NCBI GenBank assembly: GCA_002923195.1
Contig: BDTH01000074.1
Location: 9,081 to 73,080 of the forward strand
Length of the DNA stretch: 64,000 nt
Direction of reading: 5' to 3'
From: a bacterium BMS3Abin15
Lineage (GTDB): Bacteria > Patescibacteriota > Minisyncoccia > Moranbacterales > 2-12-FULL-40-10
Position numbers and translations under genes: made by a program. Numbering within the stretch: the first letter of the stretch is position 1; the number at the start of each line of letters is the position of its first letter. Shown piece by piece: positions 10,876-50,339 of the stretch. Under the pieces are notes generated by a model. It made no database searches. It was not told the origin of the DNA and worked only from the letters and a program-made list of their open reading frames with translations.

Positions 10876-12315
10876 TTGACATTACCTCACTCCATAATAC
10901 ATAATACTTTATACATGATACATCATACACACATCATCTGCCACTATAACGAAATAGGCATCAAGGGAGGAAATCGGGATTATTTCGAGAAAATGCTGGT
11001 TGATAATATCAAAAATAAGTTGGATAGAGATATCTCTAATGGATTTGAACATGCACGCCCCCGCACTAATTCTAAAATAATAAAAAGCTCAAAAATTAAT
11101 TCACGCAACAGTCTTGATTATAAACATAGTAAGGTCACTGCTAATATTGGTGTGGGGGTAAAACGCATTTCCGGCCGAATAATCATAAGACTCACGAATA
11201 AAGAGCAGATGAAAAGCAAATTTGAACTAATATTAAAAAACATCTTCGGTATTGCTAATTTTTCTTTCGCCATTGAATCAAAACAGGACATAAAAATACT
11301 TCAGGAAGATTGCTGGAATCTTATTAAAAATGAAAAGTTCAAGACTTTTAGAGTTACAACTCAGCGGTCAGAAAAAAACTATCCTCTTACTTCCCAGCAG
11401 GTTAATGAAAAAGTAGGAGATTACATTTGTAAAAAATTAGAAAAGGATGTTCGCCCTGTTAAATTCGCCAGAAGCGGTGCAAAACAATTTAACAGGGTAA
11501 ATCTCAAAAATCCAGATATTAATTGCTTCATTGAAATAGTGGATAAGCAAGCGTTTATTTATTTAGAAAAAATAGACGGTCCGGGAGGAATGCCAGTGGG
11601 AACCAGTGGGAAAGCCTTAGTGCTTCTTTCTGGAGGAATTGATTCGCCGGTCGCCGCTTACTATATGCTTAAGAGAGGAGTTAGAACTGATTTTATTCAT
11701 TTTCACTCTACTTCTCCGGCTTCGGTAGGTAAGGTCAAGGAGCTGGCAAAAATCATAAACAAGTTTCAGCTGAATTCAAAAATATTTATAATTCCATTTA
11801 CTGAAATCCAGAAAGAAATCATGGCGCAGACTCCTCCTAAGTTAAGGGTTATATTCTACCGAAGAGTGATGCTGAAAATTGCCGAAGCTATTGCTAATAA
11901 AGAAAAGTATTTAGTTCTTGTTACCGGAGAGGCGGTGGGACAGGTGGCCTCGCAGACATTGGAAAATATAGCGGTAATAGAAGATGCTGTTCACCCCCAC
12001 ACCAATTTAGTTAATAAAAGCTTACTTAATAAAAAAACTACTACCGATAAAAATAATAGAATTGGTGTGGGGGTATATATACCCGTTCTTCGCCCACTAA
12101 TTGGGTTTGATAAAGAAGAAATTATAAATAAAGCCAAAGAGATCGGGACTTATGAAACTTCCATCCTTCCCCATGAAGATTGCTGTACCCGCTTTATTCC
12201 CAAACATCCGGAAACCAGAGCCAAATTAACCGAAGTAAAAGAAGCGGAAAAGAATTTGAATGTTGAGAAACTGGTCAAAGAAGCAATAAAGAATTATAAT
12301 TCAGAAAAGCTTTGA
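10876..12315 (+). CDS. thiI: tRNA 4-thiouridine synthase / tRNA sulfurtransferase ThiI (THUMP + PP-loop), carrying two in-frame palindromic-element insertions
   Basis: ICHYNEIGIKGGNRDYFE (N-terminal ThiI region), PP-loop ALVLLSGGIDSPVAAYYM, C-terminal IPVLRPLIGFDKEEII...GTYETSI. Confidence 0.85.
   Translation: MTLPHSIIHNTLYMIHHTHIICHYNEIGIKGGNRDYFEKMLVDNIKNKLDRDISNGFEHARPRTNSKIIKSSKINSRNSLDYKHSKVTANIGVGVKRISGRIIIRLTNKEQMKSKFELILKNIFGIANFSFAIESKQDIKILQEDCWNLIKNEKFKTFRVTTQRSEKNYPLTSQQVNEKVGDYICKKLEKDVRPVKFARSGAKQFNRVNLKNPDINCFIEIVDKQAFIYLEKIDGPGGMPVGTSGKALVLLSGGIDSPVAAYYMLKRGVRTDFIHFHSTSPASVGKVKELAKIINKFQLNSKIFIIPFTEIQKEIMAQTPPKLRVIFYRRVMLKIAEAIANKEKYLVLVTGEAVGQVASQTLENIAVIEDAVHPHTNLVNKSLLNKKTTTDKNNRIGVGVYIPVLRPLIGFDKEEIINKAKEIGTYETSILPHEDCCTRFIPKHPETRAKLTEVKEAEKNLNVEKLVKEAIKNYNSEKL
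11054..11160. repeat. Palindromic element copy 2, inserted in-frame inside thiI (encodes ARPRTNSKIIKSSKINSRNSLDYKHSKVTANIGVGV)
   Basis: Imperfect termini cacgcccccgcactaat ... aatattggtgtgggggta; reading frame stays open. Confidence 0.65.
11992..12075. repeat. Palindromic element copy 3, inserted in-frame inside thiI (84 bp = 28 codons, HPHTNLVNKSLLNKKTTTDKNNRIGVGV)
   Basis: 15-bp inverted repeat cacccccacaccaat / attggtgtgggggta. The element starts exactly on a codon boundary of thiI. Confidence 0.8.
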
Positions 12316-13987: not shown

Positions 13988-15385
13988 TTAGTATTTTACG
14001 TCTGCTTTTTCGAATCCGGATTCGATAGCAGCGATAAACTCGGGAGTTTCGATATCCTCCACGACCGCATAACGAATACACTCCGGATGCAGATGCACGC
14101 CTATCAGGCCGGTATTGCTGATCACCAACTCATTGAAATGCTTAGAGTCTTCGATGTTGACTCCAAAAGCTTTCTTTGGAAGTTCCCACCAGTTGAAAAA
14201 GGTGGACTTGGGCTTAACAACCGGCTGCATACCATATTTCGTTGCGATTCCAAAAAATAATTCTTGGCGCCGCTGGAATGTCTGCCAGTATTCCTTGATT
14301 TTTTCCGGTGCATAGCGTAAAACCGCTAGCACACCGACAGCCGCCGGAGCATAAAATCCCGAATCACAGTTCCCCTTGATGGTTGCGATGTCACCAACGA
14401 AATCAGTAGAACCAACTACCGCCCCTACCCGGTGTCCGGTAAGGTTACATCCCATCTTGGAAGATGAATACGATTCTGCCCAAGAAAGGTCGGGATAGTC
14501 AACAGCAACTTCAGATAAAAGCACGTTTTCTTCAGGCGCCAGCTTTGCATAAGCCGCATCGTTGAACAGCCGGATTCCGTTTTTTTCACAGAAGTCGCAT
14601 ATCATATACCAGAATTCCAGTGTCGCAATCTGTCCCGACGGATTATTGGGATAATTCATCATCATTAAGTCGCATACTTCCAAATGATCAGTGGGAAGAA
14701 ACTGGTTCTCTGCCGTTAAGGGAAACGTTTTATGCGGAATACCTAAATACTCACACATTGTCGCCGGTGTTGGATACCCTGGCTCCGACATACTCATAAC
14801 TTCCATGTTGTCACCAAAACTGTTGCGACAAGCCAGTATTATGTATTCAAAAGCAGGCTTGGTTCCCGGCAGGGGAAGGTATTTAACATTTGCATCTGGT
14901 AAACCGATTCGCACATGGTGCTGAACAAACTCTTCGGCGAAATCAGGACATTCTTTCGCCCATTGACTTTCTTTGTCTGTATCGATACTCATTACCCCAA
15001 GCAGAAAGGAAAGAAGATCTATTCCCTCTCTCACTGTATTAGACGGAAGAATGGTGGCAGCTCCACTTATACGATTAGCAATTTTCGCAATCGGGATATG
15101 GCTTTTACGAAGTGCTTTAAAAAATGCTGTCACGCCAGGCGCTCCATTGTCCTGATATCCATGAACGTCTTCGTTATCGAGCATTGTTGCCAGAACATTC
15201 ATGAATCTGGCAATTAGCAATGCCGAGCCAACGGGCTGGCCGATGGAAAGATTCCATATTTCAGTCCCTCCCGCCTCGGCAGCCTTGCGCATTGCCTTCA
15301 CTTCCGCGAAAATATTTACACCGCCTTCCGGCAAACGACTATACCTTCCTACTTTTCTTTTTCCGATCTCCTGTTTCATAATCAA
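13988..15385 (-). CDS. PLP-dependent aminotransferase, class I/II fold (possibly DapL-like)
   Basis: MNYPNNPSG and SSSKMGCNLTGHRVG (PLP-lysine motif). GC content is clearly higher than the flanks. Confidence 0.85.
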   Translation of the reverse strand: MIMKQEIGKRKVGRYSRLPEGGVNIFAEVKAMRKAAEAGGTEIWNLSIGQPVGSALLIARFMNVLATMLDNEDVHGYQDNGAPGVTAFFKALRKSHIPIAKIANRISGAATILPSNTVREGIDLLSFLLGVMSIDTDKESQWAKECPDFAEEFVQHHVRIGLPDANVKYLPLPGTKPAFEYIILACRNSFGDNMEVMSMSEPGYPTPATMCEYLGIPHKTFPLTAENQFLPTDHLEVCDLMMMNYPNNPSGQIATLEFWYMICDFCEKNGIRLFNDAAYAKLAPEENVLLSEVAVDYPDLSWAESYSSSKMGCNLTGHRVGAVVGSTDFVGDIATIKGNCDSGFYAPAAVGVLAVLRYAPEKIKEYWQTFQRRQELFFGIATKYGMQPVVKPKSTFFNWWELPKKAFGVNIEDSKHFNELVISNTGLIGVHLHPECIRYAVVEDIETPEFIAAIESGFEKADVKY

Positions 15386-30011: not shown

Positions 30012-30950
30012 ATGGACAAAAAAATAATCAGCCCTAAATTAAATGAGAAAAAATATTTTTTCCTGTGGATCTTGACTTTGTTGATATTGGTTATCGTCGC
30101 GGGCATCGGTGTCTTTAACATATTAAAAGGAAAGAGTTCAGGGACAAAATCGAATACATCCGAGCAAGCTAACAGCGCCGATAATTCGGAAATTAGTGAA
30201 TTTAAAAAGGCATTATTGCCAGCTGAGGGAATTATTCTGCCAGTCAGATGGAATGATCTGGGAAAAAGACTAACTGAAACAGGGGTGATAGACGAGCAAA
30301 AACTCATTGCAATCTATGATCAGCGCGGCGGGCTGAGCGAAGAAGATAAAAAACTGCTTTATGACAGTGATAACGGAAATATAATTATAACTGCCCAAAA
30401 TTCCGGCTTTCTTCTTAATTTATTATGGGCACTGGGATTAGGAAACAAAAATCCAGTTCTGGAAAAAGGGCCGATGCAAGACCCGAAATATAAAGGAGCT
30501 GACCGTTTCGCATCAACCGGCGGATGGAGCATCGCCAAAGGAAACGCTATGGACCACTATAGCAAGCATAAATTCATTACTCTAACCCCAACTCAGCAGG
30601 AACTGGTAGAAAAAGTAAGTAAAAACATTTACCGTCCGTGCTGTGGAAACTCAACCTATTTTCCGGATTGCAACCACGGCATGGCAATGCTGGGATTTCT
30701 TCAGCTGATGGCTTCCCAGGGAATGGCTGAAGAAGAAATGTACAAAACAGCGCTGACAGTTAATACCTTCTGGTTTCCTGATGCTTATCTGACAATTGCC
30801 AAGTACTTTCAGAAGAAAAAAGTTGCATGGGAAGATGTAAATCCTAAAAACGTTTTAGGATTAGAATATTCGAGTGCTTCCGGCTACAAGCAGGTTATGA
30901 CAGAAGTGAATCCTGTTCAATCACAGGGAGGCAAAAGATGCGGAGTATAA
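30012..30950 (+). CDS. Hypothetical membrane-anchored protein (312 aa) with CCGNSTYFPDCNHG motif
   Basis: ORF with N-terminal TM helix. Confidence 0.5.
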   Translation: MDKKIISPKLNEKKYFFLWILTLLILVIVAGIGVFNILKGKSSGTKSNTSEQANSADNSEISEFKKALLPAEGIILPVRWNDLGKRLTETGVIDEQKLIAIYDQRGGLSEEDKKLLYDSDNGNIIITAQNSGFLLNLLWALGLGNKNPVLEKGPMQDPKYKGADRFASTGGWSIAKGNAMDHYSKHKFITLTPTQQELVEKVSKNIYRPCCGNSTYFPDCNHGMAMLGFLQLMASQGMAEEEMYKTALTVNTFWFPDAYLTIAKYFQKKKVAWEDVNPKNVLGLEYSSASGYKQVMTEVNPVQSQGGKRCGV

Positions 30951-34111: not shown

Positions 34112-34588
34112 TTATAGAATTAAAGGGAACAGCCCCAGTGCTAGTAGAAAGAAAATGAAAAATAGAAATTTATATATTTTTTGCGGAAGAGTTTCGTAGT
34201 TAGAAGAAATATTAACTATTGTATATATGGACATAAGCAATATAATGAACAGAAAATAGATAATGGCTATGTCTTGATAATGACTGGCCACCACTAGCCC
34301 GATTACATTAAAAACAAAGACATTGCCTATCGTATTGGTATGCCAGCCAAGATAATCCCACTTTTTTATTTCCTCTCTGCGATAGCCGATTTTCGAATAA
34401 GCTAGGGAAGAAACAAAAAGCAATGGCACTGCCAGAACTAATTGTAGTATAGCAATGTAGCTGAATTCCTCAGGGCCGTTGTTCCAGATAAAAGCGAAAA
34501 TAAAAATCAAAACGCCCATCATTATAGAGCTGATGTGCACTTTGGAAATCGCTTTCTCCGGGCTGGTTTTGAAAATATTCCTTGGCAT
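34112..34588 (-). CDS. Hypothetical integral membrane protein (158 aa, 4-5 TM); its 5' third is duplicated at 41362..41604
   Basis: ORF; near-identical N-terminal 65 aa occur in a second copy. Confidence 0.6.
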   Translation of the reverse strand: MPRNIFKTSPEKAISKVHISSIMMGVLIFIFAFIWNNGPEEFSYIAILQLVLAVPLLFVSSLAYSKIGYRREEIKKWDYLGWHTNTIGNVFVFNVIGLVVASHYQDIAIIYFLFIILLMSIYTIVNISSNYETLPQKIYKFLFFIFFLLALGLFPLIL

Positions 34589-34647
34589 ATTACTTTTTAA
34601 ATTTTACCACAAAACAAAAATAACCCTAACTGGGTTATTTTCTTGTC
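34410..34647. repeat. Direct repeat, left copy (5' part of membrane-protein gene + leader + terminator)
   Basis: Near-identical to 41420..41604 + 41740..41797. Confidence 0.7.
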
Positions 34648-34850
34648 GCAATTGCTGAACGAAGCTTGAACCTTTTTGAATAAAAAATGCTTGAACAGCT
34701 TCGCTACGGCTCGGGCGTGGCGGAATTGGAGGCCGTGCCAATTTCATTGGCGTGCCGTCTCTTTGTAATTTTTTATAACCCCCTCCTATCCATTTTTTTA
34801 TGACGTTTTTTTGGATGCGCTAGAGATTCTATTGGCATACAATTTGTCTT

Positions 34851-35957
34851 TTATGAATGAAACGCCGGATGTAGCTTTTTATTTAGCTCCATACGTTCAG
34901 CCAAATATCGTACGATTTCACAGTTTTTCTCGCATTTTCCCAATATATCACCTGTTTCATTAACTACTTGTCCGAGGCATCCCCCAGCACAATTATATAT
35001 GTATTTGCAATCACTGCATGTTTTTTTCTTTAAGTTTTCCACGCATCTTGAACGAACATTAGCTACTGCTTTTTCGTCATAGACAATAATGTCTTTTTCC
35101 GGAATATATTTTCCATAAATTAATTGTTGAAGTGGACCTGGGGAATATTCAGAACCCAATTGGGTAAAATCACAACATGAGACATATCCATCAGTGGTTA
35201 AATGTGGATTTGGAGTACAAGCCCTGCAAGCATGTCTTGTTTTTTCATCAAAATTAACGATGCACATTGTATTGTACCATACCCCAAGTTTTTTCGCTTT
35301 TTTATGAGCAATAAGAAAATTTTTGGCAAATTCAATAGGATCCCATTCAAAGACAGTGCTCGAATTATCATCGATCGGGGCAAATGCGGGAAGAACATTT
35401 ATATACTTTATGCCGATACTATGAAAATATCCTACTATTTCTGATTGTCTTTTCATTATTGGGGGTGTCAATGTGACCCTTGCTCCTGCCTGCATTGATT
35501 TCTGCTTGGAAAAATATTTAAGATTTCTTTCTACAATCTCAGAAGTTGGCTTTTTAGTTGCCGTTGGTCTTTGAATATCATGAACTTCAGCCGGTCCGTC
35601 GCATGAAACCCACAAAATATTTACATTTTTGGCAATCCACTTAGCTACTTTTTCCGAGAAGAAGCCATTGGTCTGCAATTCTACAGTTAATAAATTGTCT
35701 GCTTTCTTGTATGCATAATTTTTTATTTTTTTCATCAGTTCAAATTCCAATGTTGGCTCGCCAATGCCGTAAAATCTAATATGCCTACTGGCGTTATCCC
35801 TGAAAAAATCATCAATCCCTCGCTTGGAAAAATTGAAATCTAAAGATTGATGCTCTTTCTTAAGGTTTTGATTTTTATGCGTATAGCAATAAATGCACCT
35901 AAGATTGCATCTTGTTGATAAAAAGAAAGAAATCATTTGTTTTCTTACATGTGCCAT
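34851..35957 (-). CDS. Radical SAM enzyme with SPASM domain, anSME-like (anaerobic sulfatase-maturase family)
   Basis: CNLRCIYCY (CxxxCxxC), QTNGFFSEKVAKWIAKNVNILWVSCDGPAEVHDIQR, C-terminal Cys clusters CRAC...SCCDF...CSDCKYIYNCAGGC. Confidence 0.8.
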   Translation of the reverse strand: MAHVRKQMISFFLSTRCNLRCIYCYTHKNQNLKKEHQSLDFNFSKRGIDDFFRDNASRHIRFYGIGEPTLEFELMKKIKNYAYKKADNLLTVELQTNGFFSEKVAKWIAKNVNILWVSCDGPAEVHDIQRPTATKKPTSEIVERNLKYFSKQKSMQAGARVTLTPPIMKRQSEIVGYFHSIGIKYINVLPAFAPIDDNSSTVFEWDPIEFAKNFLIAHKKAKKLGVWYNTMCIVNFDEKTRHACRACTPNPHLTTDGYVSCCDFTQLGSEYSPGPLQQLIYGKYIPEKDIIVYDEKAVANVRSRCVENLKKKTCSDCKYIYNCAGGCLGQVVNETGDILGKCEKNCEIVRYLAERMELNKKLHPAFHS

Positions 35958-36019
35958 ATTATTCTAATGCTATTTATTATGAATTTATTGCTATATAATA
36001 ATATTAAACGAATTGTAGC

Positions 36020-37363
36020 CTACTTGTATAAACCCTCTTTTAAGCGAGTTAGCAATTTATGAGTTTTCAGTCCAATTGTAGATTTGGTTCTCCAGCCCGA
36101 ACGATAAGTTGCTATCAGAAATTTTTTGCGCTCTCGCAATTCTTCTCTTGGCGGTAAAGTATCGTAAACATCCACATATCCATTTAAATCATCTTTTTTA
36201 AAGCGACTTAAAAAATAGGCTTGGTCTTGAAAAATACTACCGACACTTACATTAACTACCGTAGTTTTTTTAGGAATCATGTCAATCATTTCATTGGTGA
36301 TGAATTTTTCAGCGCCAACATGAGGCAAGTGGAAAGTTATAATGTCAGATTCGGTTAATATTTTTTCCAATGGCTTAAATTGAAGATTGTATCGTTTTTC
36401 AAGATCCGGATTTTGGCTTGTCGAATAATAGGAAACATCCATGTCAAATCCATCTCTGGCAATTTGTACAACTCTTCTGCCAATACGACCAAGGCCAATT
36501 ATACCAATTTTTTTATTCATCAATGATTCACCTGTCGGAATAATTTTAGCAACATCAACGACCGAAAGATAATTACCTTGATTAATTTTGTTTTTTATTT
36601 CTTCGCTAACTGATCTTGAGTCATAAATAATAACATGACTTTCTCTCAAAAAATTGTCTATGGGTCTATAGGCGATATTTAATGCATGTTGCAAGTCACT
36701 CAGGCTATAAATCGCATTCATATGAAAGCCATGACTGGCTATTTTAAATAAATCTTCTTTAAGATTATCATTTACCAACAAGCCGACGGTTAATCCTTTG
36801 AGTGTTTCTTCTTTAAACTCATCAGGACTGGTAATTTTTAATTTTCCAACTTTTACATATTCATGAATCCACGAACCTCTTAAATTATCTCGCCAATTTT
36901 TATTAAACTTTCTGACATCGTCGGTAATCTTGGCCATAATTTCTTCTTGTAAATGTCTCCGATTGTTCGTTGGTGTTAAGCCTAGGGCATTTTCATTATT
37001 CTTATAAAGCTGCAATAAACCGACAAATGCTAGTTCCGCAACCGAATCAGTTCCGTAATCAGGAATACTGGGAATGTGAAGGTTATGTTTTAGCGCATAA
37101 TCTTTATTAATTCTGTGTTCGAAAGCATGAGTCCAAAAGGCAATCGTCTTTAATTGAGGATTCTCGTCGATTACTTCATTCGGAATATCAACCCAGCAAC
37201 TTATAATGCAATCAGCACCTTTGACTCTTTCCAGCACCTCTTCTTCGGTTTCACAGGTATTATATTCGACTACTTCTTCCGCAATTTCATTTAATCGATC
37301 TCTGTGTTCGGGATAAAAGATAACCGAATCTAATACAACAATTTTTTTATATTTTTTATTCAT
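36020..37363 (-). CDS. D-isomer-specific 2-hydroxyacid dehydrogenase family protein, divergent (about 170-aa insertion between the catalytic and NAD domains)
   Basis: GIIGLGRIGRRV Rossmann motif; N-terminal catalytic-domain similarity. Confidence 0.65.
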   Translation of the reverse strand: MNKKYKKIVVLDSVIFYPEHRDRLNEIAEEVVEYNTCETEEEVLERVKGADCIISCWVDIPNEVIDENPQLKTIAFWTHAFEHRINKDYALKHNLHIPSIPDYGTDSVAELAFVGLLQLYKNNENALGLTPTNNRRHLQEEIMAKITDDVRKFNKNWRDNLRGSWIHEYVKVGKLKITSPDEFKEETLKGLTVGLLVNDNLKEDLFKIASHGFHMNAIYSLSDLQHALNIAYRPIDNFLRESHVIIYDSRSVSEEIKNKINQGNYLSVVDVAKIIPTGESLMNKKIGIIGLGRIGRRVVQIARDGFDMDVSYYSTSQNPDLEKRYNLQFKPLEKILTESDIITFHLPHVGAEKFITNEMIDMIPKKTTVVNVSVGSIFQDQAYFLSRFKKDDLNGYVDVYDTLPPREELRERKKFLIATYRSGWRTKSTIGLKTHKLLTRLKEGLYK

Positions 37364-37393
37364 AATGCTAATTATTGAATTGATTATTTAAGG

Positions 37394-37464
37394 AGGCGCA
37401 GGTAGGATTCGAACCCACATGCAGAGCTCTGCAAGCTCTGGTCTGACTACTTGACTACCGCGCC
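37394..37464 (-). tRNA. tRNA-Cys (anticodon GCA)
   Basis: Acceptor GGCGCGG/CTGCGCC, anticodon stem AGAGC/GCTCT, loop TTGCAGA, T arm GTGGG-TTCGAAT-CCTAC, discriminator U, 3-bp D stem. Confidence 0.8.
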
Positions 37465-37470
37465 ATATTT

Positions 37471-38949
37471 TTACGGATTGGAAATTAATCTTTTGGATAA
37501 AAGTATTGGAATATAACACGGAACAATTATATCTCTACCATCTTCCGCTTTCATTTCTTTGATCAAATCATTTTTTCTCATAATTTTTCCTGTAATTTCT
37601 TTCGCTTCATTTTCTACGATTAAATTCTGGAAATCTTTATCTTTTTTATTGATAGTAATCACATAGGGTATCCATTTTAAGTCCCCTGCTTTCTTTTTGA
37701 CATTATAATTAATTTTTCTATCATCTAAGTCAACCCTAAAATCTAATGAATTAAGTTCTTTTTCAAGTTTTTTAGCATTCTCCAAAGAATCATCATCACG
37801 AGTAATTATTCTGGCTTGTATCGGAGCAACCCAAAAAGGAAACGATCTAAAGCCGGTCCTTGTTTCTTTCTTAATTGCTCTGTCAATAAAAAAGTAGGCA
37901 GAACGTTCAATCGATGAGAATGGAAAAACGACATGCAATATGGAAACGGGTTTTTTAATACCACCCTTCGTTTTAAATTTCAAATCAAGTGAAAATTCCG
38001 AAGAACCATCATCCACAAGACATGTGGCGATTTCTACTGGCGATTTTAAGCTATCAAATACTTTATACTCAATATCAATTTTTACTCCATCTTTGCAACG
38101 GACATCTTCATAAACTGCCAACAAGATTGGCTTGTTTATAGATTTGACTATTGTTTTTAAAAAATCAAAATTTTCTTTTAAGAAATCCTGTGTCATACTG
38201 CATAATAATTCATATTCTGGATCAAATTTCTCTATTTCATTTAATATTTTTGTATGTGCAGCTAATGCTATTTTTATTGACGACATTATATCTGCATTGA
38301 TAACATCGAGTTCTGGTATGCTAAAGCTTCTAACTCTTTTACATAATTGTAGCTCTTTTTCTTCTTCAAACCTGTAGCTCTTGGATATTTCGAAAAAACC
38401 AATTGGAAGACCTTTGTCATGAAGATTAATCCCTTTTGCTATTGAAAGTTTTTGCATACAAGCGTTATATCTTAATATTCGATTCTTTTTATTGATAACG
38501 ACATCGTATTGATTTAATCCATATAGCCCGGGATTTTTAGAAATTATCGCGATTTGCTTTTTTACTTCTGGAACATTGACATCAAGTAACTCTCCTCCAC
38601 CAACTTTATATAGTGGAATATCTTGATCATCGCTAAATTCTTTAACAACTAGCCAACTATACTTTTCTATTGCCTCCATGACAGTTGTAGCGTGTTGTAT
38701 TTGTCTCATATGTCCAGGCTCCGATAATGGATCCCATTCAAAACCCATTTCATTAATCATTTTATTAAGTTTGGTTTCTCGATCCTTAAATTTATGATTT
38801 TTTAAAAAACACTCGCTATCCACAAGTGATTTTAAACAAACTTCGGTTTTATCAAATTTATAATCATCCACAGGTGTAACTGTGGAGGACGAATCCAGTA
38901 TATAATATTTTTTATCAGAATGACTTTTTTTAGACTTTCTTATAGACAT
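37471..38949 (-). CDS. Class II aaRS-like protein, ThrRS-family paralog with degenerate active site (second zinc His missing); retains anticodon-binding domain
   Basis: YNACMQ (Cys ligand), motif-2-like SKSYRFEEE...RVRSFSIPELDV (no His), anticodon-binding FPFWVAPIQARIIT...DFRVDLDDRKINYNVKKK...IPYVITIN. Confidence 0.65.
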   Translation of the reverse strand: MSIRKSKKSHSDKKYYILDSSSTVTPVDDYKFDKTEVCLKSLVDSECFLKNHKFKDRETKLNKMINEMGFEWDPLSEPGHMRQIQHATTVMEAIEKYSWLVVKEFSDDQDIPLYKVGGGELLDVNVPEVKKQIAIISKNPGLYGLNQYDVVINKKNRILRYNACMQKLSIAKGINLHDKGLPIGFFEISKSYRFEEEKELQLCKRVRSFSIPELDVINADIMSSIKIALAAHTKILNEIEKFDPEYELLCSMTQDFLKENFDFLKTIVKSINKPILLAVYEDVRCKDGVKIDIEYKVFDSLKSPVEIATCLVDDGSSEFSLDLKFKTKGGIKKPVSILHVVFPFSSIERSAYFFIDRAIKKETRTGFRSFPFWVAPIQARIITRDDDSLENAKKLEKELNSLDFRVDLDDRKINYNVKKKAGDLKWIPYVITINKKDKDFQNLIVENEAKEITGKIMRKNDLIKEMKAEDGRDIIVPCYIPILLSKRLISNP

Positions 38950-38995
38950 AATATCTCTTTGAAAGTAATTTGTAGTTTGATTAGCAAGTTTATTT

Positions 38996-39046
38996 TTTAA
39001 AAAAAGGGACAGGAAACAATACTGTGTTCCCGTCCCTTTTTCTTTT
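38996..39046 (-). terminator. Rho-independent terminator between the two ThrRS-like genes
   Basis: gggacaggaaaca-atac-tgtgttcccgtccc stem with flanking A/T runs. Confidence 0.55.
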
Positions 39047-40450
39047 CTAACGAAAACGAGGCTGCTTTGAAAGAAGGCTGGGCCAACTTAGTGGCTCAAA
39101 AGGTTTGTCTCCCTGAAGTTGATCGAGGTTTTGGGAAAACTCGGATTCCTTCATTTCCTTTTGTCCAGAAATTCCTCGTTCTCTCACAGCGATGGCCTGA
39201 TTCTCGAGTTCCTTATCCCCAACCATACCAACAAATGGCACCCAATTGACTTCTGCCTCCCGTATTTTGTACCCAACAGTCTCCTTGCGATCATCGATTT
39301 CCACCCTTGCCCCTATCTTTGAGGCAATTTCCTGACAACGCAAAATATGTCTGTCGGCTACAGGTATCAAGCGAACCTGAGTAGGACATAGCCAGTATGG
39401 AAACTTGGCAACTTCTCCTTTTTGTATTCTCCTTGCCTGTAGCTCCAAAAGAGCATACAGATTGCGATCTATAGACCCGGAGATTGATGCATGGAGAAGT
39501 AGGGGGCGTTGCTGTTTGCCATCCTTGTCAACATAGTTAATATCGAACCTCTCTGCATTCTCAACATCGATTTGCACAGTGGAAAGAGCGGCCGCTTTCT
39601 TTTGCCCATCAATCACGTTAAATTCAAACTTAAGGACAAAATAAAAGAACCTTTCTTTCCATACCTCGAGCAATACTGGACGCCCGAAATCCTTAACGAT
39701 TTCCATAACAAAGTCGCGGTTTTTTTGAAAGAAATCATCAACAACTCTTATTGCCATAACATGGTTGAGTTCGAGATCGCTCATCCATCTCTTACAAAGA
39801 AGATATTGCTGATAAAATTCTTCCTTGGCTTGCTCCACATCAACACAAAGAGAATGCATATCGGGCATCGTAAATACCCTCAGACGCCTCAATCCAGCCA
39901 ATTCCCCCGCCTGCTCCCTGCGAAATGAATAATGGGTCAGTTCGTAAATCTTCACTGGTAAATGATGATAGCTAATCCCCATATCATGCATGATCAGATA
40001 CTGTCCAAAGCAAGCAGCAAAACGAAGAAAATACTTCTTATCTCCACTTAGCAAATAGTATTGCCTTGCCGGAAAGCGTTTCAGATAGCTTGCCAGTTGT
40101 GGATGTTTAAGATCATACATAACTGGACTTTCAACCTGTATGCCACCATAGTCCTTTACAATTTCAGAAGCATGTCTTTCCATAAGGCGCTTGATTAAGT
40201 GTCCCTTTGGCAACCAACGAAAATTGCCAGAATCAGCAGCTGGTTCATAATCAACCAACTCCATTTGTTGCATCATCTTCACATGAGCAGGCGCTTCCTT
40301 CACCTCCCTCGAGCCAGAGCTTTCGTACGAATAAAAAACCTTCAAATCTTCACTCCCTGCCCATTTGAATTTCTCTACCTTAATAATTGATCCATCGGGT
40401 GAAACAATCAACCACTCCGATTTTGGCTCTTCTTCTTGTTTTGCACCCAT
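39047..40450 (-). CDS. Threonyl-tRNA synthetase-like catalytic core + anticodon-binding domain, lacking TGS/editing N-domains (ORF extends to 40588; RBS AAGGAGG supports start 40450)
   Basis: All three ThrRS zinc ligands are aligned: AACFGQ, MPDMHSL, LLLHASISGS. Motif 2 is FRREQAGELAGLRRLRVF. Anticodon-binding region is KFPYWLCPTQVRLIPV...GARVEIDDRKETVGYKIREAEVNWVPF. Confidence 0.75.
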   Translation of the reverse strand: MGAKQEEEPKSEWLIVSPDGSIIKVEKFKWAGSEDLKVFYSYESSGSREVKEAPAHVKMMQQMELVDYEPAADSGNFRWLPKGHLIKRLMERHASEIVKDYGGIQVESPVMYDLKHPQLASYLKRFPARQYYLLSGDKKYFLRFAACFGQYLIMHDMGISYHHLPVKIYELTHYSFRREQAGELAGLRRLRVFTMPDMHSLCVDVEQAKEEFYQQYLLCKRWMSDLELNHVMAIRVVDDFFQKNRDFVMEIVKDFGRPVLLEVWKERFFYFVLKFEFNVIDGQKKAAALSTVQIDVENAERFDINYVDKDGKQQRPLLLHASISGSIDRNLYALLELQARRIQKGEVAKFPYWLCPTQVRLIPVADRHILRCQEIASKIGARVEIDDRKETVGYKIREAEVNWVPFVGMVGDKELENQAIAVRERGISGQKEMKESEFSQNLDQLQGDKPFEPLSWPSLLSKQPRFR

Positions 40451-40608
40451 CGCCCTTCCTCCTTTATTCGTTTTTAATGTGCTCTTCAAAGAATTATTCT
40501 TTGAAACATTATATTGTATATCAGAAACTTGTTTATTGTCAATTCTTTTATTTTTTTTCATATGCTTCCTTGAATAATTATTTAACACTTATTTTTATAC
40601 TTGTATAT

Positions 40609-41346
40609 TTATCTGAGGCTGTAACCGCCATCAACAACAAGTAATTCGCCGGTTATAAAACTTGCATCACTGGATGCCAAAAATAAGACGGCTTTTGCAA
40701 TTTCGTCAGGTTCAGCAGATCGCTTGAGTGGAGTTTGCTGTTCGAAGAATTTTATAACCCTCTTTCCAGCTTCTTTTGTCATGTCAGTCATTACATTGCC
40801 CGGAGCGACAGCGTTTATGCGAATATTAGGAGCCAACTCTTTTGCAAATGCCTTTGTCATTGTAATTATTCCTCCTTTTGCTGATGAATATGCCAATACG
40901 GATGCAGCGCCAAGAAAACCATATATGGATGAAATATTGACAATGGATCCACTTCCATTTCTTGTCATAATTGGCGAAACTTCTCTTATCATCAACCATG
41001 CACTGGTTAGATTAATATCCATAGTTGCATGCCAAATTTTTTCGCTTGATTTCCAATTGCCTTCTCTAAAAATAACCCCGGCATTATTCACAAGTATGTC
41101 AATCTTGCCAAATTTTTTTATTGTTTCAGACACAAGGTGCTTTACATCTTCTTCCTTAGAAACATCTGCCTGAATAAAAATAGCTTTGTTTTTTCCAATA
41201 GCATTTACAACTTTTTTTGCATCTTCTGTTTGATCTTTGCAATTAATAACAACCCTTGCACCCTCTTTAGCAAAAAGAATGGCCGTTGCTTTTCCTATGC
41301 CTCGTGATGATCCTGTAATAATTGCAACTTTATTTTTTAGTTTCAT
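40609..41346 (-). CDS. Short-chain dehydrogenase/reductase (FabG-like)
   Basis: TGSSRGIG, NAG, S-YxxxK (YSSAKGG) motifs. Confidence 0.85.
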   Translation of the reverse strand: MKLKNKVAIITGSSRGIGKATAILFAKEGARVVINCKDQTEDAKKVVNAIGKNKAIFIQADVSKEEDVKHLVSETIKKFGKIDILVNNAGVIFREGNWKSSEKIWHATMDINLTSAWLMIREVSPIMTRNGSGSIVNISSIYGFLGAASVLAYSSAKGGIITMTKAFAKELAPNIRINAVAPGNVMTDMTKEAGKRVIKFFEQQTPLKRSAEPDEIAKAVLFLASSDASFITGELLVVDGGYSLR

Positions 41347-41361
41347 AAATATAGGACTTTT

Positions 41362-41604
41362 TTATTTGATCAAATCATTAACGCTAACGCCCAATCCCTT
41401 GGCTATTTTTGAGTAGGCAAGAGTGGAAACAAATAAGAGGGGGATTGCTAAAACCAGTTGGAATATAGCAATACGACTGAGTTCGTCAGGGCCGTTGTTC
41501 CAGATAAAAGCGAAAATAAAAATCAAAACGCCCATCATTATAGAGCTGATGTGCACTTTGGAAATTGCTTTCTCCGGGCTGGTTTTAAAAATGTTTTTAG
41601 GCAT
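41362..41604 (-). pseudogene. Truncated duplicate (first ~65 aa) of membrane-protein gene 34112..34588 with a 15-aa unrelated tail
   Basis: MPKNIFKTSPEKAISKVHISSIMMGVLIFIFAFIWNNGP... is identical or near-identical to the other copy, then diverges. Confidence 0.5.
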
Positions 41605-41739
41605 ACCCTGTAGTAGAAATTCAAATGGGCTTTGCCCAAAATGAACTAATTATTTACTTAAAATTTATTTTTAATTAAAAACCCTGCCCCATGTACTCCC
41701 TTAATACTCCGTAACTTTTGAATTTTCACTACGGGGCAT
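41605..41739. mobile_element. MITE-like insertion, 135 bp, with ~20-bp terminal inverted repeats (ccctgtagtagaaattcaaa / tttgaattttcactacgggg)
   Basis: Present in the right repeat copy, absent from the left. Inserted exactly at the start codon; CAT is duplicated at both ends. Confidence 0.55.
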
Positions 41740-41762
41740 ATTACTTTTTTAAATTCTACCAT

Positions 41763-41790
41763 AAAACAAAAATAACCCTAAATGGGTTAT
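41763..41790 (-). terminator. Rho-independent terminator after tRNA-Pro (ataaccc-attta-gggttat + U-run)
   Basis: Same structure is present in the left repeat copy (34611..34640). Confidence 0.6.
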
Positions 41791-41797
41791 TTTTTTG

Positions 41798-41868
41798 TCG
41801 GGGCACTGAGAATCGAACTCAGCCTACATGGTCCCAAACCAAGCGTACTACCAATATACGATGCCCCG
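41798..41868 (-). tRNA. tRNA-Pro (anticodon UGG)
   Basis: C1-G72 pair and A73 typical of bacterial tRNA-Pro; anticodon loop TTTGGGA with G37; T arm CTGAG-TTCGATT-CTCAG. Confidence 0.85.
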
Positions 41869-48338: not shown

Positions 48339-50339
48339 CTATATTATCAGCCCTGCTATTAGCAATGCTACAATGTTAATAATTTTAATCATCGGGTTAA
48401 TGGCCGGTCCAGCTGTATCCTTGTAAGGATCACCGACTGTATCACCGGTAACTGCCGCTTTATGAGCAAATGAACCCTTGCCTCCAAAGTTTCCCTCCTC
48501 AATATATTTCTTGGCATTATCCCAAGCTCCTCCTCCAGAAGTCATTGATATGGCTACAAAAATACCAGTAATAATTGATCCTACTAAAAGTCCGCCCAAA
48601 GCCTGTGGCCCTAAGAATACTCCTATAATTATAGGAGCCAGTACCGGAATTAAAGCAGGAACGATCATTTCTTTTATCGCTGATTTTGTCACGATATCAA
48701 CGCTGCTGGCATAATCCGGCTTAGTCGTCCCTTCCATAATTCCCTTAATCTCCCTGAACTGCCTTCTCACTTCCTCCACAACTGCGCCAGCTGTTTTGGA
48801 AACCGCCCGCATACTAATTGACGCGAAAAGATAAGGAATCATTCCACCAATAAACAGGCCGACTAAAACATTTACATCGTCTAGTCTGAAAATTGCATTT
48901 TCCATTCCTTTGTCGATAAGCTCCTGGATATAAGAAGCAAAGAGAACTATAGCAGCCAATCCGGCAGAAGCAATGGCGTAACCTTTTGTTACTGCTTTAG
49001 TTGTATTGCCGACAGAATCCAAAGCATCTGTAATTTCACGGACGGAATCATCCATTTTTGACATCTCAGCAATTCCGCCAGCATTGTCTGTAATCGGGCC
49101 AAATGCGTCAATGGCTACAATAATCCCAGCCATTGAAAGCATACTCATCGCTGCTACTGCTATTCCGTAAAGGCCGGCTAGCCAAAACGAGAGGAGTATG
49201 CCAGCTACAATGATTATAACAGGCAAGGCTGTTGATTCCATTCCCATTGCCAATCCCATAATAATATTAGTCCCATGACCGGTTTTCGAAGCCTTGGCTA
49301 TTTCTTTAACCGGCCGGTATTTTTTAGAGGTGTAATATTCAGTAATCAATACCATGCCGGCAGTGATAGCTATTCCGATAATAGAAGCAGCATATATTTT
49401 ATGAAAATCGTATAAGCCATTTCCTTCCATTATAATCTTGGTGATGGGATAGAAGGCAATCAAAGCAATGACTGACGAAGCAATAAGCCCTTTATAAAGC
49501 GCTCCCATTATATTTTTTGACGAACCCAATCTAACAAAGTAAATTCCCAGAATTGACGCTACGATTGAAACCGCTCCCAAAGCCAGCGGGTAAATAACAG
49601 CGTTGCTGAAAGCGGCGAAAGTAAAAGATCCCAAAAGCATGGCAGCAATAGCAGTTATGGCATAAGTTTCAAATAAATCAGCTGCCATCCCAGCGCAGTC
49701 TCCGACATTATCTCCCACGTTATCGGCAATAACAGCCGGGTTGCGGGGATCGTCTTCCGGAATACCGGCTTCCACTTTTCCAACCAGGTCGGCTCCTACA
49801 TCGGCCGCTTTGGTATAAATGCCTCCGCCTAGCCGGGCAAAAACGCTGATTAAGCTTCCGCCAAATCCCACTCCAATTAAAGCACTCAGATCTTTTCCTC
49901 CAGACAAAATATAAAATCCAGTCACTACCAAAAGTCCCAATCCGACTACCAGCAATCCAGTCACCGCTCCTCCTTCAAATGCAACTTTCAAAGCTTTTCC
50001 CAGTCCGCTTTTAGCCGCTTCAGCAGTACGAACATTAGCTCTAACTGCAATATTCATTCCGATATAACCGGCAATAGCCGAAGCTATAGCCCCGACCAGA
50101 AATCCTATCCCAGTGCTAAGCCCCAAGGTAAAATAAAGAATGGCAAAAATAATTAATGCTACATAAGCCACCGTTTTATATTGGCGATTCAGATAGGCTT
50201 TAGCTCCCTCACGGATAGCGTTAGAAATCTCAACCATTTTTCCTTCTCCCTCCGGATACTTTTTAACTTTCCGAGCGAGATAAAAAGCGAATGCTATTGA
50301 TATTAATGATGCGGCAATCGCGTATGCTTCTACTGACAT
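48339..50339 (-). CDS. hppA: Membrane-bound proton/sodium-translocating pyrophosphatase
   Basis: [27 protein letters not shown]. Confidence 0.9.

Follow-up and report, generated by a model that had tools for sequence, protein, structure and literature searches.

A ThrRS-derived protein with an apparently remodeled active site in a putatively mobile gene cassette of Patescibacteria

The 64,000-nucleotide stretch of contig BDTH01000074.1 from the bacterium BMS3Abin15 (assembly GCA_002923195.1, positions 9,081 to 73,080 of the forward strand), referred to here as the window, carries two adjacent and co-oriented genes of the threonyl-tRNA synthetase (ThrRS) family. The downstream one, an uninterrupted open reading frame (ORF) that we call B, is the subject of this analysis. 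Its immediate upstream neighbor is called A, and around the two lie a short-chain dehydrogenase/reductase (SDR), a tRNA-Cys gene, a D-2-hydroxyacid dehydrogenase, and a radical S-adenosylmethionine (SAM) enzyme of the SPASM type (Table 1). The original prediction, made from the letters of the DNA, described B as a second ThrRS-family paralog with a degenerate active site, lying directly beside tRNA-Cys. The tRNA is where it was placed, beginning 6 nt past the stop codon of B, another ThrRS-like gene does adjoin B on the upstream side, and the motifs that it quoted are all found in the protein: YNACMQ (Cys164), SKSYRFEEE (Arg193 and Glu195), ILHVVFPFSSIERS, and RVRSFSIPELDV. What has changed is the picture of the active site, which comparison with relatives from several phyla suggests has been rebuilt, and that of the gene itself, which recurs with the same partners in a cassette that appears to be mobile.

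The relationship of B to ThrRS extends over its entire length. Residues 5-488 correspond to positions 146-610 of NF003068, the NCBIfam model of archaeal thrS, and Pfam recognizes an HGTP_anticodon domain at the C terminus, with the class II core (tRNA-synt_2b) scoring 20.5 bits, under the 29.3 cutoff. BLASTP aligns residues 14-487 of B with 58-509 of A (E = 2e-36), the two proteins being 22% identical over their full length. An AlphaFold model built on a 12-sequence alignment (pLDDT 78, pTM 0.81) matches ThrRS crystal structures in Foldseek with E of ~1e-25 and a TM score of 0.77 on the target, confirming the ThrRS fold. The N-terminal ~110 residues, initially held to be unrelated to any ThrRS domain, are covered by the NF003068 alignment and pair with residues 58-160 of A, and within them residues 11-40 are modeled at a pLDDT of 88-95. 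They are best regarded, on these alignments, as the homologous counterpart of the linker and pre-catalytic portion of an archaeal ThrRS and not as a new domain. B is nevertheless set apart from the enzymes that it resembles by the equivalog models, reaching 295.3 bits against a cutoff of 484 on NF003068 and 119.6 against 383.65 on TIGR00418, so that by score it would not be classed as a canonical ThrRS.

B belongs to a discrete family. Its close relatives form ~40 clusters at 90% identity and are 35-87% identical to it, a profile re-search of the indexed protein database returning the same set, and the family grew by a distant subfamily of the same length, termed B-like2, when 1.84 billion representatives were searched exhaustively with the profile. 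Full-length members score at least 642 bits on the family profile and canonical ThrRS at most 358. Conservation was counted over 81 members, 43 close and 38 distant, and is given here in the numbering of Escherichia coli ThrRS, of which residues 243-629 were rebuilt from PDB alignments and the numbering verified at C334, R363, H385, H511, and R520. In a neighbor-joining tree, which is a rough distance tree, all proteins with Glu at position 383 form one clade, the E383 clade, sister to ThrRS of the Thermoproteota/Bathyarchaeia type.

Invariant in all 81 sequences are C334, K337, S361, R363, E365, F379, E383, E479, H511, E519, and R520. The ATP-binding arginines of motifs 2 and 3, whose conservation the original prediction had proposed as a check, are therefore intact throughout (Arg193 and Arg349 in B), and motif 3 also keeps Ser346 at the position of S517. 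The segment ILHVVFPFSSIERS spans His339 (H511) and Arg349, and RVRSFSIPELDV spans Glu213 and Asp215, the counterparts of D383 and H385. Replacement of the second zinc-binding His, noted at the outset, is thus borne out, and of the zinc triad C334/H385/H511 B keeps Cys164 and His339. The wider description of the site as degenerate does not hold, since among the residues at issue H385 alone is changed, the ATP arginines, E365, F379, C334, and H511 being invariant. Position 385 itself is His in all 38 distant members and in 25 of the 43 close ones; Asp is confined to the subclade of the window (18 of the 43). Members of this subclade also share S332N, L381I, F483C, and Q484L, a correlated set of changes that does not resemble scattered decay. 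Furthermore, Asp is aligned at the position of C334 in many archaeal-type ThrRS-like sequences with canonical residues elsewhere, so a carboxylate at one zinc-ligand position need not signify loss of function.

The changes common to the family lie elsewhere. Position 383, at which the Asp of ThrRS binds the hydroxyl group of threonine, is Glu throughout the clade, and position 337 is Lys in all 81 members as opposed to Gln or His in ThrRS. K465 is replaced by Asp in almost all members, and a C-x-D-G motif is conserved in the region of Y462; its Cys (Cys285 in B) is kept in 78 of the 81, although placement of this loop is alignment-dependent. The Pro of motif 1 has become Gly or Val. Taken together, the pattern of residues suggests an active site that is remodeled, not degenerate, and fits an enzyme that would still bind ATP and probably a metal while recognizing another substrate. 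R520 and R375 contact the γ- and β-phosphates of ATP in ThrRS and would be of consequence only if ATP is used. B is also under purifying selection: pairwise comparison with four orthologues gives dN/dS (the ratio of nonsynonymous to synonymous substitution rates) of 0.10-0.17, values that are rough because dS is near saturation. The closest genomic orthologue (85% identity; metagenome-assembled genome (MAG) DeMMO5_21, JAGUWE010000106.1, locus L001, 216-1700) has a frameshift at about codon 50 and an in-frame stop, which point either to a pseudogene or to an error in assembling its 3-kb contig.

These features bear directly on whether B might be a second, divergent but ordinary ThrRS, such as a stress-, zinc-limitation-, or antibiotic-resistant isoform. 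Its full-length ThrRS-cat architecture would suit that role, as would source annotations, in which proteins of this kind are named 'threonyl-tRNA synthetase', 'aminoacyl--tRNA ligase-related protein', or 'hypothetical'. An ordinary ThrRS is nonetheless very unlikely: B lies under both equivalog cutoffs, position 383 is never Asp in the family, substitutions are found at Y462, at K465, and at each of the anticodon contacts (R583, E600, and R609), and one or two canonical ThrRS genes already stand beside B in the genomes that carry it.

The anticodon contacts are those established for E. coli ThrRS, in which Arg583, Glu600, and Arg609 bind the anticodon (PMC6430810). In B, the fold of the C-terminal domain and its core motifs (PFWxxPxQxR and DDR) are conserved, and the three contact residues are K, D, and E, varying across the family. 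Nearly all canonical ThrRS aligned keep them, including every A. The anticodon-binding domain, described initially as intact, is therefore intact in fold but not in its contacts, and with these contacts lost B is unlikely, judged by its residues, to select tRNA-Thr through the anticodon. A role as a decoy for tRNA-Thr, one of three functions first suggested for B, is unlikely for the same reason. Another of the three, a trans-editing factor like the crenarchaeal ThrRS-ed, was rejected: B has no editing domain (no match to PF08915, tRNA-Thr_ED), and its score on NF011500 is 48.7 bits against 362 and is confined to the C-terminal domain.

More generally, B might be a non-catalytic pseudo-enzyme acting as a tRNA-binding decoy or regulator, as a trans-editing helper, or as the heterodimer partner of A. 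The subthreshold tRNA-synt_2b score, the replacement of H385, and the loss of the motif-1 Pro all lean this way, as does the tandem arrangement with A, which itself lacks an editing domain; the ThrRS-cat/ThrRS-ed pair of crenarchaea and the T1/T2 hetero-oligomers of Anabaena offer comparisons, and trans-oligomerization of duplicated ThrRS is mentioned in one paper (PMC5370408). Set against this are the absence of an editing domain from B and the loss of the contacts that a decoy for tRNA-Thr would need. The residues of the ATP site do not vary over 81 sequences that are 27-87% identical, nor do two of the three zinc ligands (the third is His or Asp), a degree of constraint needless for a scaffold and one accompanied by the low dN/dS. 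B also occurs without A, beside a bacterial ThrRS or a full-length ThrRS with its own editing domain. A non-catalytic B, as originally envisaged, is accordingly given only a slim chance. That B is instead a catalytically competent, neofunctionalized descendant of an archaeal-type ThrRS belongs to the reading favored below, which as a whole is given an even chance.

A survey of gene neighborhoods covered 11 distinct Microgenomates loci that carry B homologues, the window included. Every locus of sufficient length combines B with a 245-aa SDR and a dehydrogenase of 440-448 aa, the SDR being found wherever the contig covers that side (L001, L005, and L012 end before it), and a canonical ThrRS is always present with the cassette. 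What distinguishes the dehydrogenase is an insert of ~100 aa that separates the catalytic domain from the NAD-binding one and is conserved across Microgenomates and Streptomyces (L013 8640-10004); the nearest solved relatives of the enzyme are glyoxylate/hydroxypyruvate reductases. Most of the Microgenomates loci add A, radical SAM enzymes of three kinds (SPASM, HemN-like, and B12-binding), and a protein of 311-320 aa that matches nothing in Pfam, NCBIfam, or PADLOC. The SPASM enzyme of the window recurs in L003, L006, L007, L009, L010, and L012, and in L002 a TauD dioxygenase takes the place of the radical SAM genes. The gene order is shuffled among the 11 loci, and the gene set persists.

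Beyond Patescibacteria, a cassette built around B-like2 occurs in two Streptomyces strains, one Pyrinomonadaceae genome, and one further 1.8-Mb contig. In the Streptomyces and Pyrinomonadaceae genomes, the order is B12 radical SAM, SDR, dehydrogenase, B-like, TauD, HemN-like radical SAM, and B12 radical SAM. Start and stop codons overlap between dehydrogenase and B-like and between B-like and TauD in both Streptomyces strains, and between B-like and TauD alone in Pyrinomonadaceae. A full-length archaeal-type ThrRS with its editing domain follows these cassettes, or precedes them across an IS4 element. On the 1.8-Mb contig, the order is bacterial ThrRS, SDR, dehydrogenase, B-like, and TauD. When the window is compared with Streptomyces sp. 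3MP-14, the dehydrogenase is 53% identical over its full length (insert included), A and the cassette ThrRS 55%, the SDR 37%, and B 27%. The TauD enzymes of the cassettes are nearest to the amino-acid hydroxylases PvcB and AsnO, and the B12 radical SAM enzymes to the iterative C-methylases TokK and CysS.

Several signs of insertion accompany this distribution. In the window, the segment from SDR to radical SAM gene (A, B, tRNA-Cys, and dehydrogenase lying between; ~34649-41404, 6.8 kb) is bracketed by direct repeats of ~260 nt, of which the left-hand copy abuts tRNA-Pro (41797-41868). The repeats comprise the terminator hairpin 3' of tRNA-Pro and the 5' end of a membrane-protein gene, and an 80-aa ORF (41362-41604) of the left-hand copy is a truncated duplicate of a 158-aa ORF (34112-34588), with 88% identity over 68 aa. 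The arrangement has the look of a scar left by insertion or recombination. Elsewhere, the cassette adjoins a large serine recombinase and tRNA-Gln in a Microgenomates MAG (L002 8587-10148), and in Streptomyces an IS4 transposase lies between the cassette and its ThrRS (L016 4833-6143). On the evidence of these neighborhoods, the cassette appears to be horizontally mobile, with B as its signature gene.

The ThrRS genes that travel with the cassette require separate consideration. A is an archaeal-type ThrRS that scores above both equivalog cutoffs (599 bits against 484 on NF003068, and 405 on TIGR00418). Its match begins at about position 143 of NF003068, from which it follows that the archaeal editing domain is absent. 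Its catalytic, zinc, and anticodon residues are all canonical in the alignment, and no diagnostic substitution was found at the active-site columns examined. The true start is probably the ATG at 40450, giving 467 aa, as the homologues suggest, the listed GTG at 40588 being in all likelihood too far upstream. The Streptomyces cassette ThrRS (629 aa), to which A is related as given above, aligns with it from residue 168 onward, and the rough distance tree places most A proteins together with the cassette ThrRS enzymes from Streptomyces and Pyrinomonadaceae. In L002, L003, L009, L010, and L012 a bacterial-type ThrRS with a tRNA_SAD domain abuts the cluster; in L003 and L012 it stands side by side with A, so that three ThrRS-family genes fall within 8 kb, and in L002 and L015 it is the only ThrRS of the cassette. 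No bacterial-type ThrRS lies within the 64-kb window. A second cognate aminoacyl-tRNA synthetase (aaRS), as expected of self-resistance, is accordingly seen in L003 and L012 and, as the archaeal-type enzyme, in the cassettes of Streptomyces, a genus that has a housekeeping bacterial thrS.

A pairing of this kind is known from ascamycin biosynthesis. There, Ala-tRNA is supplied by AcmD, an additional AlaRS that resists the product, and the aminoacyl-adenylate mimic is built by AcmF, an AlaRS-like protein that has diverged and carries a D-to-E change; SbzA of the SB-203208 cluster is the IleRS-like analogue (PMC12945691). By analogy, B could be a transferase that takes threonyl from Thr-tRNA(Thr) made by A and passes it, without ATP, to a small molecule bound in the former ATP/adenylate pocket. 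The resemblance is real, in that a canonical-like extra aaRS stands beside a divergent one (in all 11 Microgenomates loci and in four outside Patescibacteria), A and B are adjacent and co-oriented, B retains a tRNA-binding fold, and the D-to-E change is found in AcmF too. The loss of ATP/adenylate residues that marks AcmF is not found in B, however. AcmF has lost most of its ATP-binding residues, whereas those of B are invariant, including the motif-3 Arg that contacts the γ-phosphate. B also lacks the contacts R583, E600, and R609 for the threonine anticodon, and L002 and L015, with a bacterial-type ThrRS alone, imply that no specific pairing of A and B is required. Such a transferase is thus unlikely.

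The tRNA-Cys beside B raises another possibility, namely that B charges tRNA-Cys(GCA), or some other tRNA, with an amino acid other than threonine (or with Cys or a Cys/Thr analogue), with the neighboring enzymes producing or modifying the amino acid either free or tRNA-bound, as in SepRS/SepCysS or the pyl cassette. Six of the 11 Microgenomates loci have tRNA-Cys within the cassette, namely the window, L001, L003, and L012 (B in these three being 68-85% identical), L007 (56%), and L011 (47%). In each of the six it lies immediately upstream of the dehydrogenase gene, L011 with its different order (SDR, tRNA-Cys, dehydrogenase, and B) included, and in the window it falls within the repeat-bounded segment. 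The anticodon-fold domain of B is conserved with a changed surface, and its predicted ligands Cys/His(Asp)/His, with the invariant Glu, presumably resemble the Cys2-His-Glu zinc site of class I CysRS. On the other side, there is no tRNA-Cys in the cassettes of L002, L006, L008, L009, and L010, and a scan of L013-L015, three of the four loci from outside Patescibacteria, found no tRNA gene in or near the cassette. The function of B therefore cannot depend on tRNA-Cys across the whole family, although the two may be linked in particular lineages. The tRNA has the standard bacterial identity set (U73, GCA, and the A13/A22 mismatch), so an ordinary CysRS should charge it, and mischarging would corrupt Cys codons. 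Other copies of the cassette are flanked by tRNA-Pro and tRNA-Gln, and mobile elements often carry tRNA genes or insert beside them. We consider it unlikely that B is a charging enzyme of this type, and just as unlikely that its neighbors modify the amino acid in a SepCysS- or pyl-like fashion; tRNA-Cys is treated here as cargo of the cassette or a relic of recombination at tRNA genes.

A more specific version would cast the cassette as a self-contained pathway, mobile between phyla and centered on a ThrRS duplicate, in which TauD, radical SAM, and dehydrogenase enzymes would build a new threonine-like amino acid while it is held as aminoacyl-AMP or aminoacyl-tRNA. In Microgenomates the pathway would bring a tRNA(GCA) of its own, B being the class II enzyme that charges tRNA-Cys; this we consider decidedly unlikely. 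Equally doubtful is the form in which B would be a 'CysRS-like' enzyme employing its Cys/His/Glu zinc site, or would catalyze the first step of a tRNA-dependent amino-acid conversion. Were tRNA-Cys charging true, it would amount to a new aaRS specificity derived from ThrRS and a third route to aminoacylated tRNA-Cys. As for the tRNA itself, it has a 3-bp D-stem and a normal T-loop, and its D-loop reads AAGTAGTCA in the window as against AAGTGGTTA or GAGTGGCTA in relatives, one of G18/G19 being A. The idea that it is an unusual tRNA-Cys was rejected, as the fold is standard and the G18-to-A change is the sole difference.

The reading that we favor, and which we hold to be evenly balanced between right and wrong, is that of an ATP-using ligase: B would act on a threonine-like metabolite within a mobile biosynthetic cassette, and A would provide immunity, a supply of Thr-tRNA, or both. 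B would retain the ATP/adenylate site of class II enzymes together with a site of the zinc type, formed by Cys164, His339, and, where ThrRS has His, Asp215, and its amino-acid pocket would have been rebuilt through D383E, Lys337, replacement of K465 by Asp, and substitution of Y462 within C-x-D-G, to which the subclade of the window adds H385D and Q484L. The neighboring enzymes would make or tailor a threonine-like metabolite, β-hydroxy or otherwise zinc-chelating; B would activate it with ATP and transfer it to an acceptor other than tRNA-Thr read through its anticodon. The product of the cassette would probably be an antimetabolite directed at threonine or ThrRS, and A, the co-transferred canonical ThrRS, would be an insensitive spare and/or the supplier of Thr-tRNA. 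An ATP-dependent ligase is favored over an AcmF-like transferase because B has kept all of the ATP-binding residues that AcmF has lost, and the nearest relatives of the TauD, B12 radical SAM, and dehydrogenase enzymes point in the same direction, toward a threonine-like substrate made or tailored by the cassette. Of the three functions first suggested, analogy to aaRS-like ligases comes closest to the evidence behind this reading: the part that places B outside translation is what the evidence favors, and membership of the SerRS-like carrier-protein ligases is not.

A number of considerations weigh against the ligase reading. The evidence for it is comparative, and does not by itself name a substrate or a product. 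The model of B is of low confidence near motif 2 and over residues 118-163, and with the motif-1 Pro lost, the dimer interface may be changed. In the window, the cassette has no TauD, B12 radical SAM, or HemN-like gene and no gene for the 311-320-aa protein, such that the pathway there may be partial; a 312-aa ORF (30012-30950) was considered for the last of these and shows no similarity. The cassette genes yielded no carrier-protein domain at any locus, and an obvious carrier protein, nucleoside-building genes, and a condensation enzyme are likewise absent, leaving no evident acceptor. The extra ThrRS could have reasons other than immunity. Finally, the retained anticodon-fold domain and the cassette tRNA-Cys of many Microgenomates leave room for a tRNA-dependent role.

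Other explanations of the cassette were set aside. An anti-phage function was rejected because PADLOC gives no match for B, A, the SDR, or the dehydrogenase, the only similarity being a generic viperin-like one of the radical SAM enzyme. The SPASM enzyme resembles peptide maturases, and a cluster for a peptide of ribosomal origin that is modified after translation (RiPP) was considered, but the intergenic gaps are too small for a precursor peptide. Modification of elongation factor P (EF-P) in the manner of EpmA was suggested by the likeness of the SDR to YmfI, which at 203 bits is below the cutoff of 238, and nothing in the context supports it. An archaeal origin of the window was likewise rejected, as it encodes RNase Y, trigger factor, ClpP, NusA, and RpoB; its closest genomic relatives are Patescibacteria/Microgenomates MAGs. 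Among genes at a distance from the cassette, the window encodes a ThiI-like tRNA sulfurtransferase (10876-12315, plus strand), a class I/II aminotransferase with a long N-terminal extension (13988-15385, minus strand), and a membrane H+-pyrophosphatase (48339-50339, minus strand).

Table 1. Features of the B cassette, with positions in the window unless a locus number is given
Feature	Position	Strand	Remarks
Right-hand repeat copy	34389..34648		Direct repeat
Radical SAM/SPASM enzyme, 368 aa	34851..35957	-	PapB/anSME-like; frequent partner
D-2-hydroxyacid dehydrogenase, 447 aa	36020..37363	-	~100-aa insert; invariable cassette partner
tRNA-Cys(GCA)	37392..37464	-	6 nt after the B stop codon
ORF B, 492 aa	37471..38949	-	Uninterrupted; ThrRS-derived paralog, member of the E383 clade
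B C-terminal HGTP_anticodon-fold domain	37540..37842	-	Pfam E = 1.7e-8
B class II catalytic core	37855..38619	-	Motifs 2 and 3; Gly119 at the motif-1 Pro position
B His339 to Arg349	37903..37935	-	H511 (third zinc ligand) to R520 (motif-3 ATP Arg); both invariant
B Cys285	38095..38097	-	Clade-specific C-x-D-G motif, at or adjoining ThrRS Y462; kept in 78/81
B Glu213-Leu214-Asp215	38305..38313	-	E. coli D383-A384-H385
B Arg193	38371..38373	-	R363, motif-2 ATP-binding Arg; invariant, with Glu195 (E365) and Phe209 (F379), the motif-2 residues for ATP and adenine
B Cys164	38458..38460	-	E. coli C334, first zinc ligand; invariant 81/81
B N-terminal ~110 aa	38620..38949	-	Homologous to linker and pre-catalytic region of archaeal ThrRS
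ORF A	39047..40588	-	Archaeal-type ThrRS; catalytic and anticodon domains, no N-terminal editing domain
SDR, 245 aa	40609..41346	-	Pfam; invariable cassette partner of B
Left-hand repeat copy	41405..41800		41405-41605 at 84%, 41746-41800 at 93%
311-320-aa protein	L003 5488-6447; L007 2528-3490; L009 10456-11391; L010 10164-11111; L012 1-864		

If the ligase reading is correct, B stands for an undescribed family of ThrRS-derived enzymes comprising 80 or more sequence clusters, with members in Patescibacteria, Actinobacteria, Acidobacteria, and one or more unassigned lineages. No description of ThrRS-like biosynthetic enzymes, of ThrRS paralogs in the candidate phyla radiation, or of the B family or its cassette was found in the limited literature collection consulted. 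For ThrRS, a validated target of antibiotics, there are few natural inhibitors, borrelidin and obafluorin among them, and a portable cassette that may make a new antimetabolite directed at threonine or ThrRS would be of interest in that light. It would also imply that genome-reduced and probably episymbiotic Microgenomates keep and exchange a module of 7-12 kb that resembles secondary metabolism, with a bearing on their interaction with hosts. There is, in addition, a caution for annotation: B-type proteins are routinely named 'threonyl-tRNA synthetase', while the true cassette ThrRS in the window is without an editing domain.

Among known systems comparable to B is the archaeal-type ThrRS of NF003068, the nearest enzymes being of the Thermoproteota/Bathyarchaeia type, such as that of Pyrobaculum. 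The fold and the domain order from linker to C-terminal tail are the same at ~30% identity, and C334, R363, E365, H511, and R520 are shared along with the Q336/E479 signature; B differs in lacking the editing domain, in D383E, in the changes at Y462 and K465, in the new K337, and in the loss of the anticodon contacts and the motif-1 Pro. The split ThrRS of crenarchaea likewise involves two ThrRS-family genes, and A resembles ThrRS-cat. B, however, combines the lack of an editing domain with retained catalytic residues, the opposite of ThrRS-ed, and the hosts of the cassette are bacteria that often also have an editing bacterial ThrRS. Reuse of the class II core outside tRNA charging for translation has precedents in EpmA/PoxA, the SerRS-like amino acid:[carrier protein] ligases, HisZ, and AsnA. 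These generally lack an anticodon-binding domain, which B keeps, and the cassette has neither a carrier protein nor an EF-P partner, so that B does not group with the SerRS-like ligases.

The self-resistance ThrRS of borrelidin (BorO) and obafluorin (ObaO) producers are comparable to A in being additional ThrRS enzymes inside a biosynthetic cluster, the resistance of A being a supposition; those clusters are of the polyketide synthase/non-ribosomal peptide synthetase type and contain no ThrRS-derived biosynthetic enzyme. The nearest parallel is with AcmF/AcmD and SbzA. The cassette of B has no nucleoside-sulfamate genes, its tailoring enzymes are instead SDR, dehydrogenase, TauD, and radical SAM proteins, and it is found also in the ultra-small Patescibacteria. 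B derives from ThrRS and has kept every ATP-binding residue, whereas AcmF has lost most. What they have in common is a diverged aaRS-like enzyme beside an extra canonical-looking aaRS in a transferable tailoring cluster, a D-to-E change in the amino-acid site, and a role outside translation, which for B is presumed. Were the favored reading to hold, B would found a third, ThrRS-derived lineage among the very few aaRS-like biosynthetic enzymes that stand beside an extra cognate aaRS, after AcmF and SbzA, and an unusual one among these enzymes in that its ATP site has been kept.

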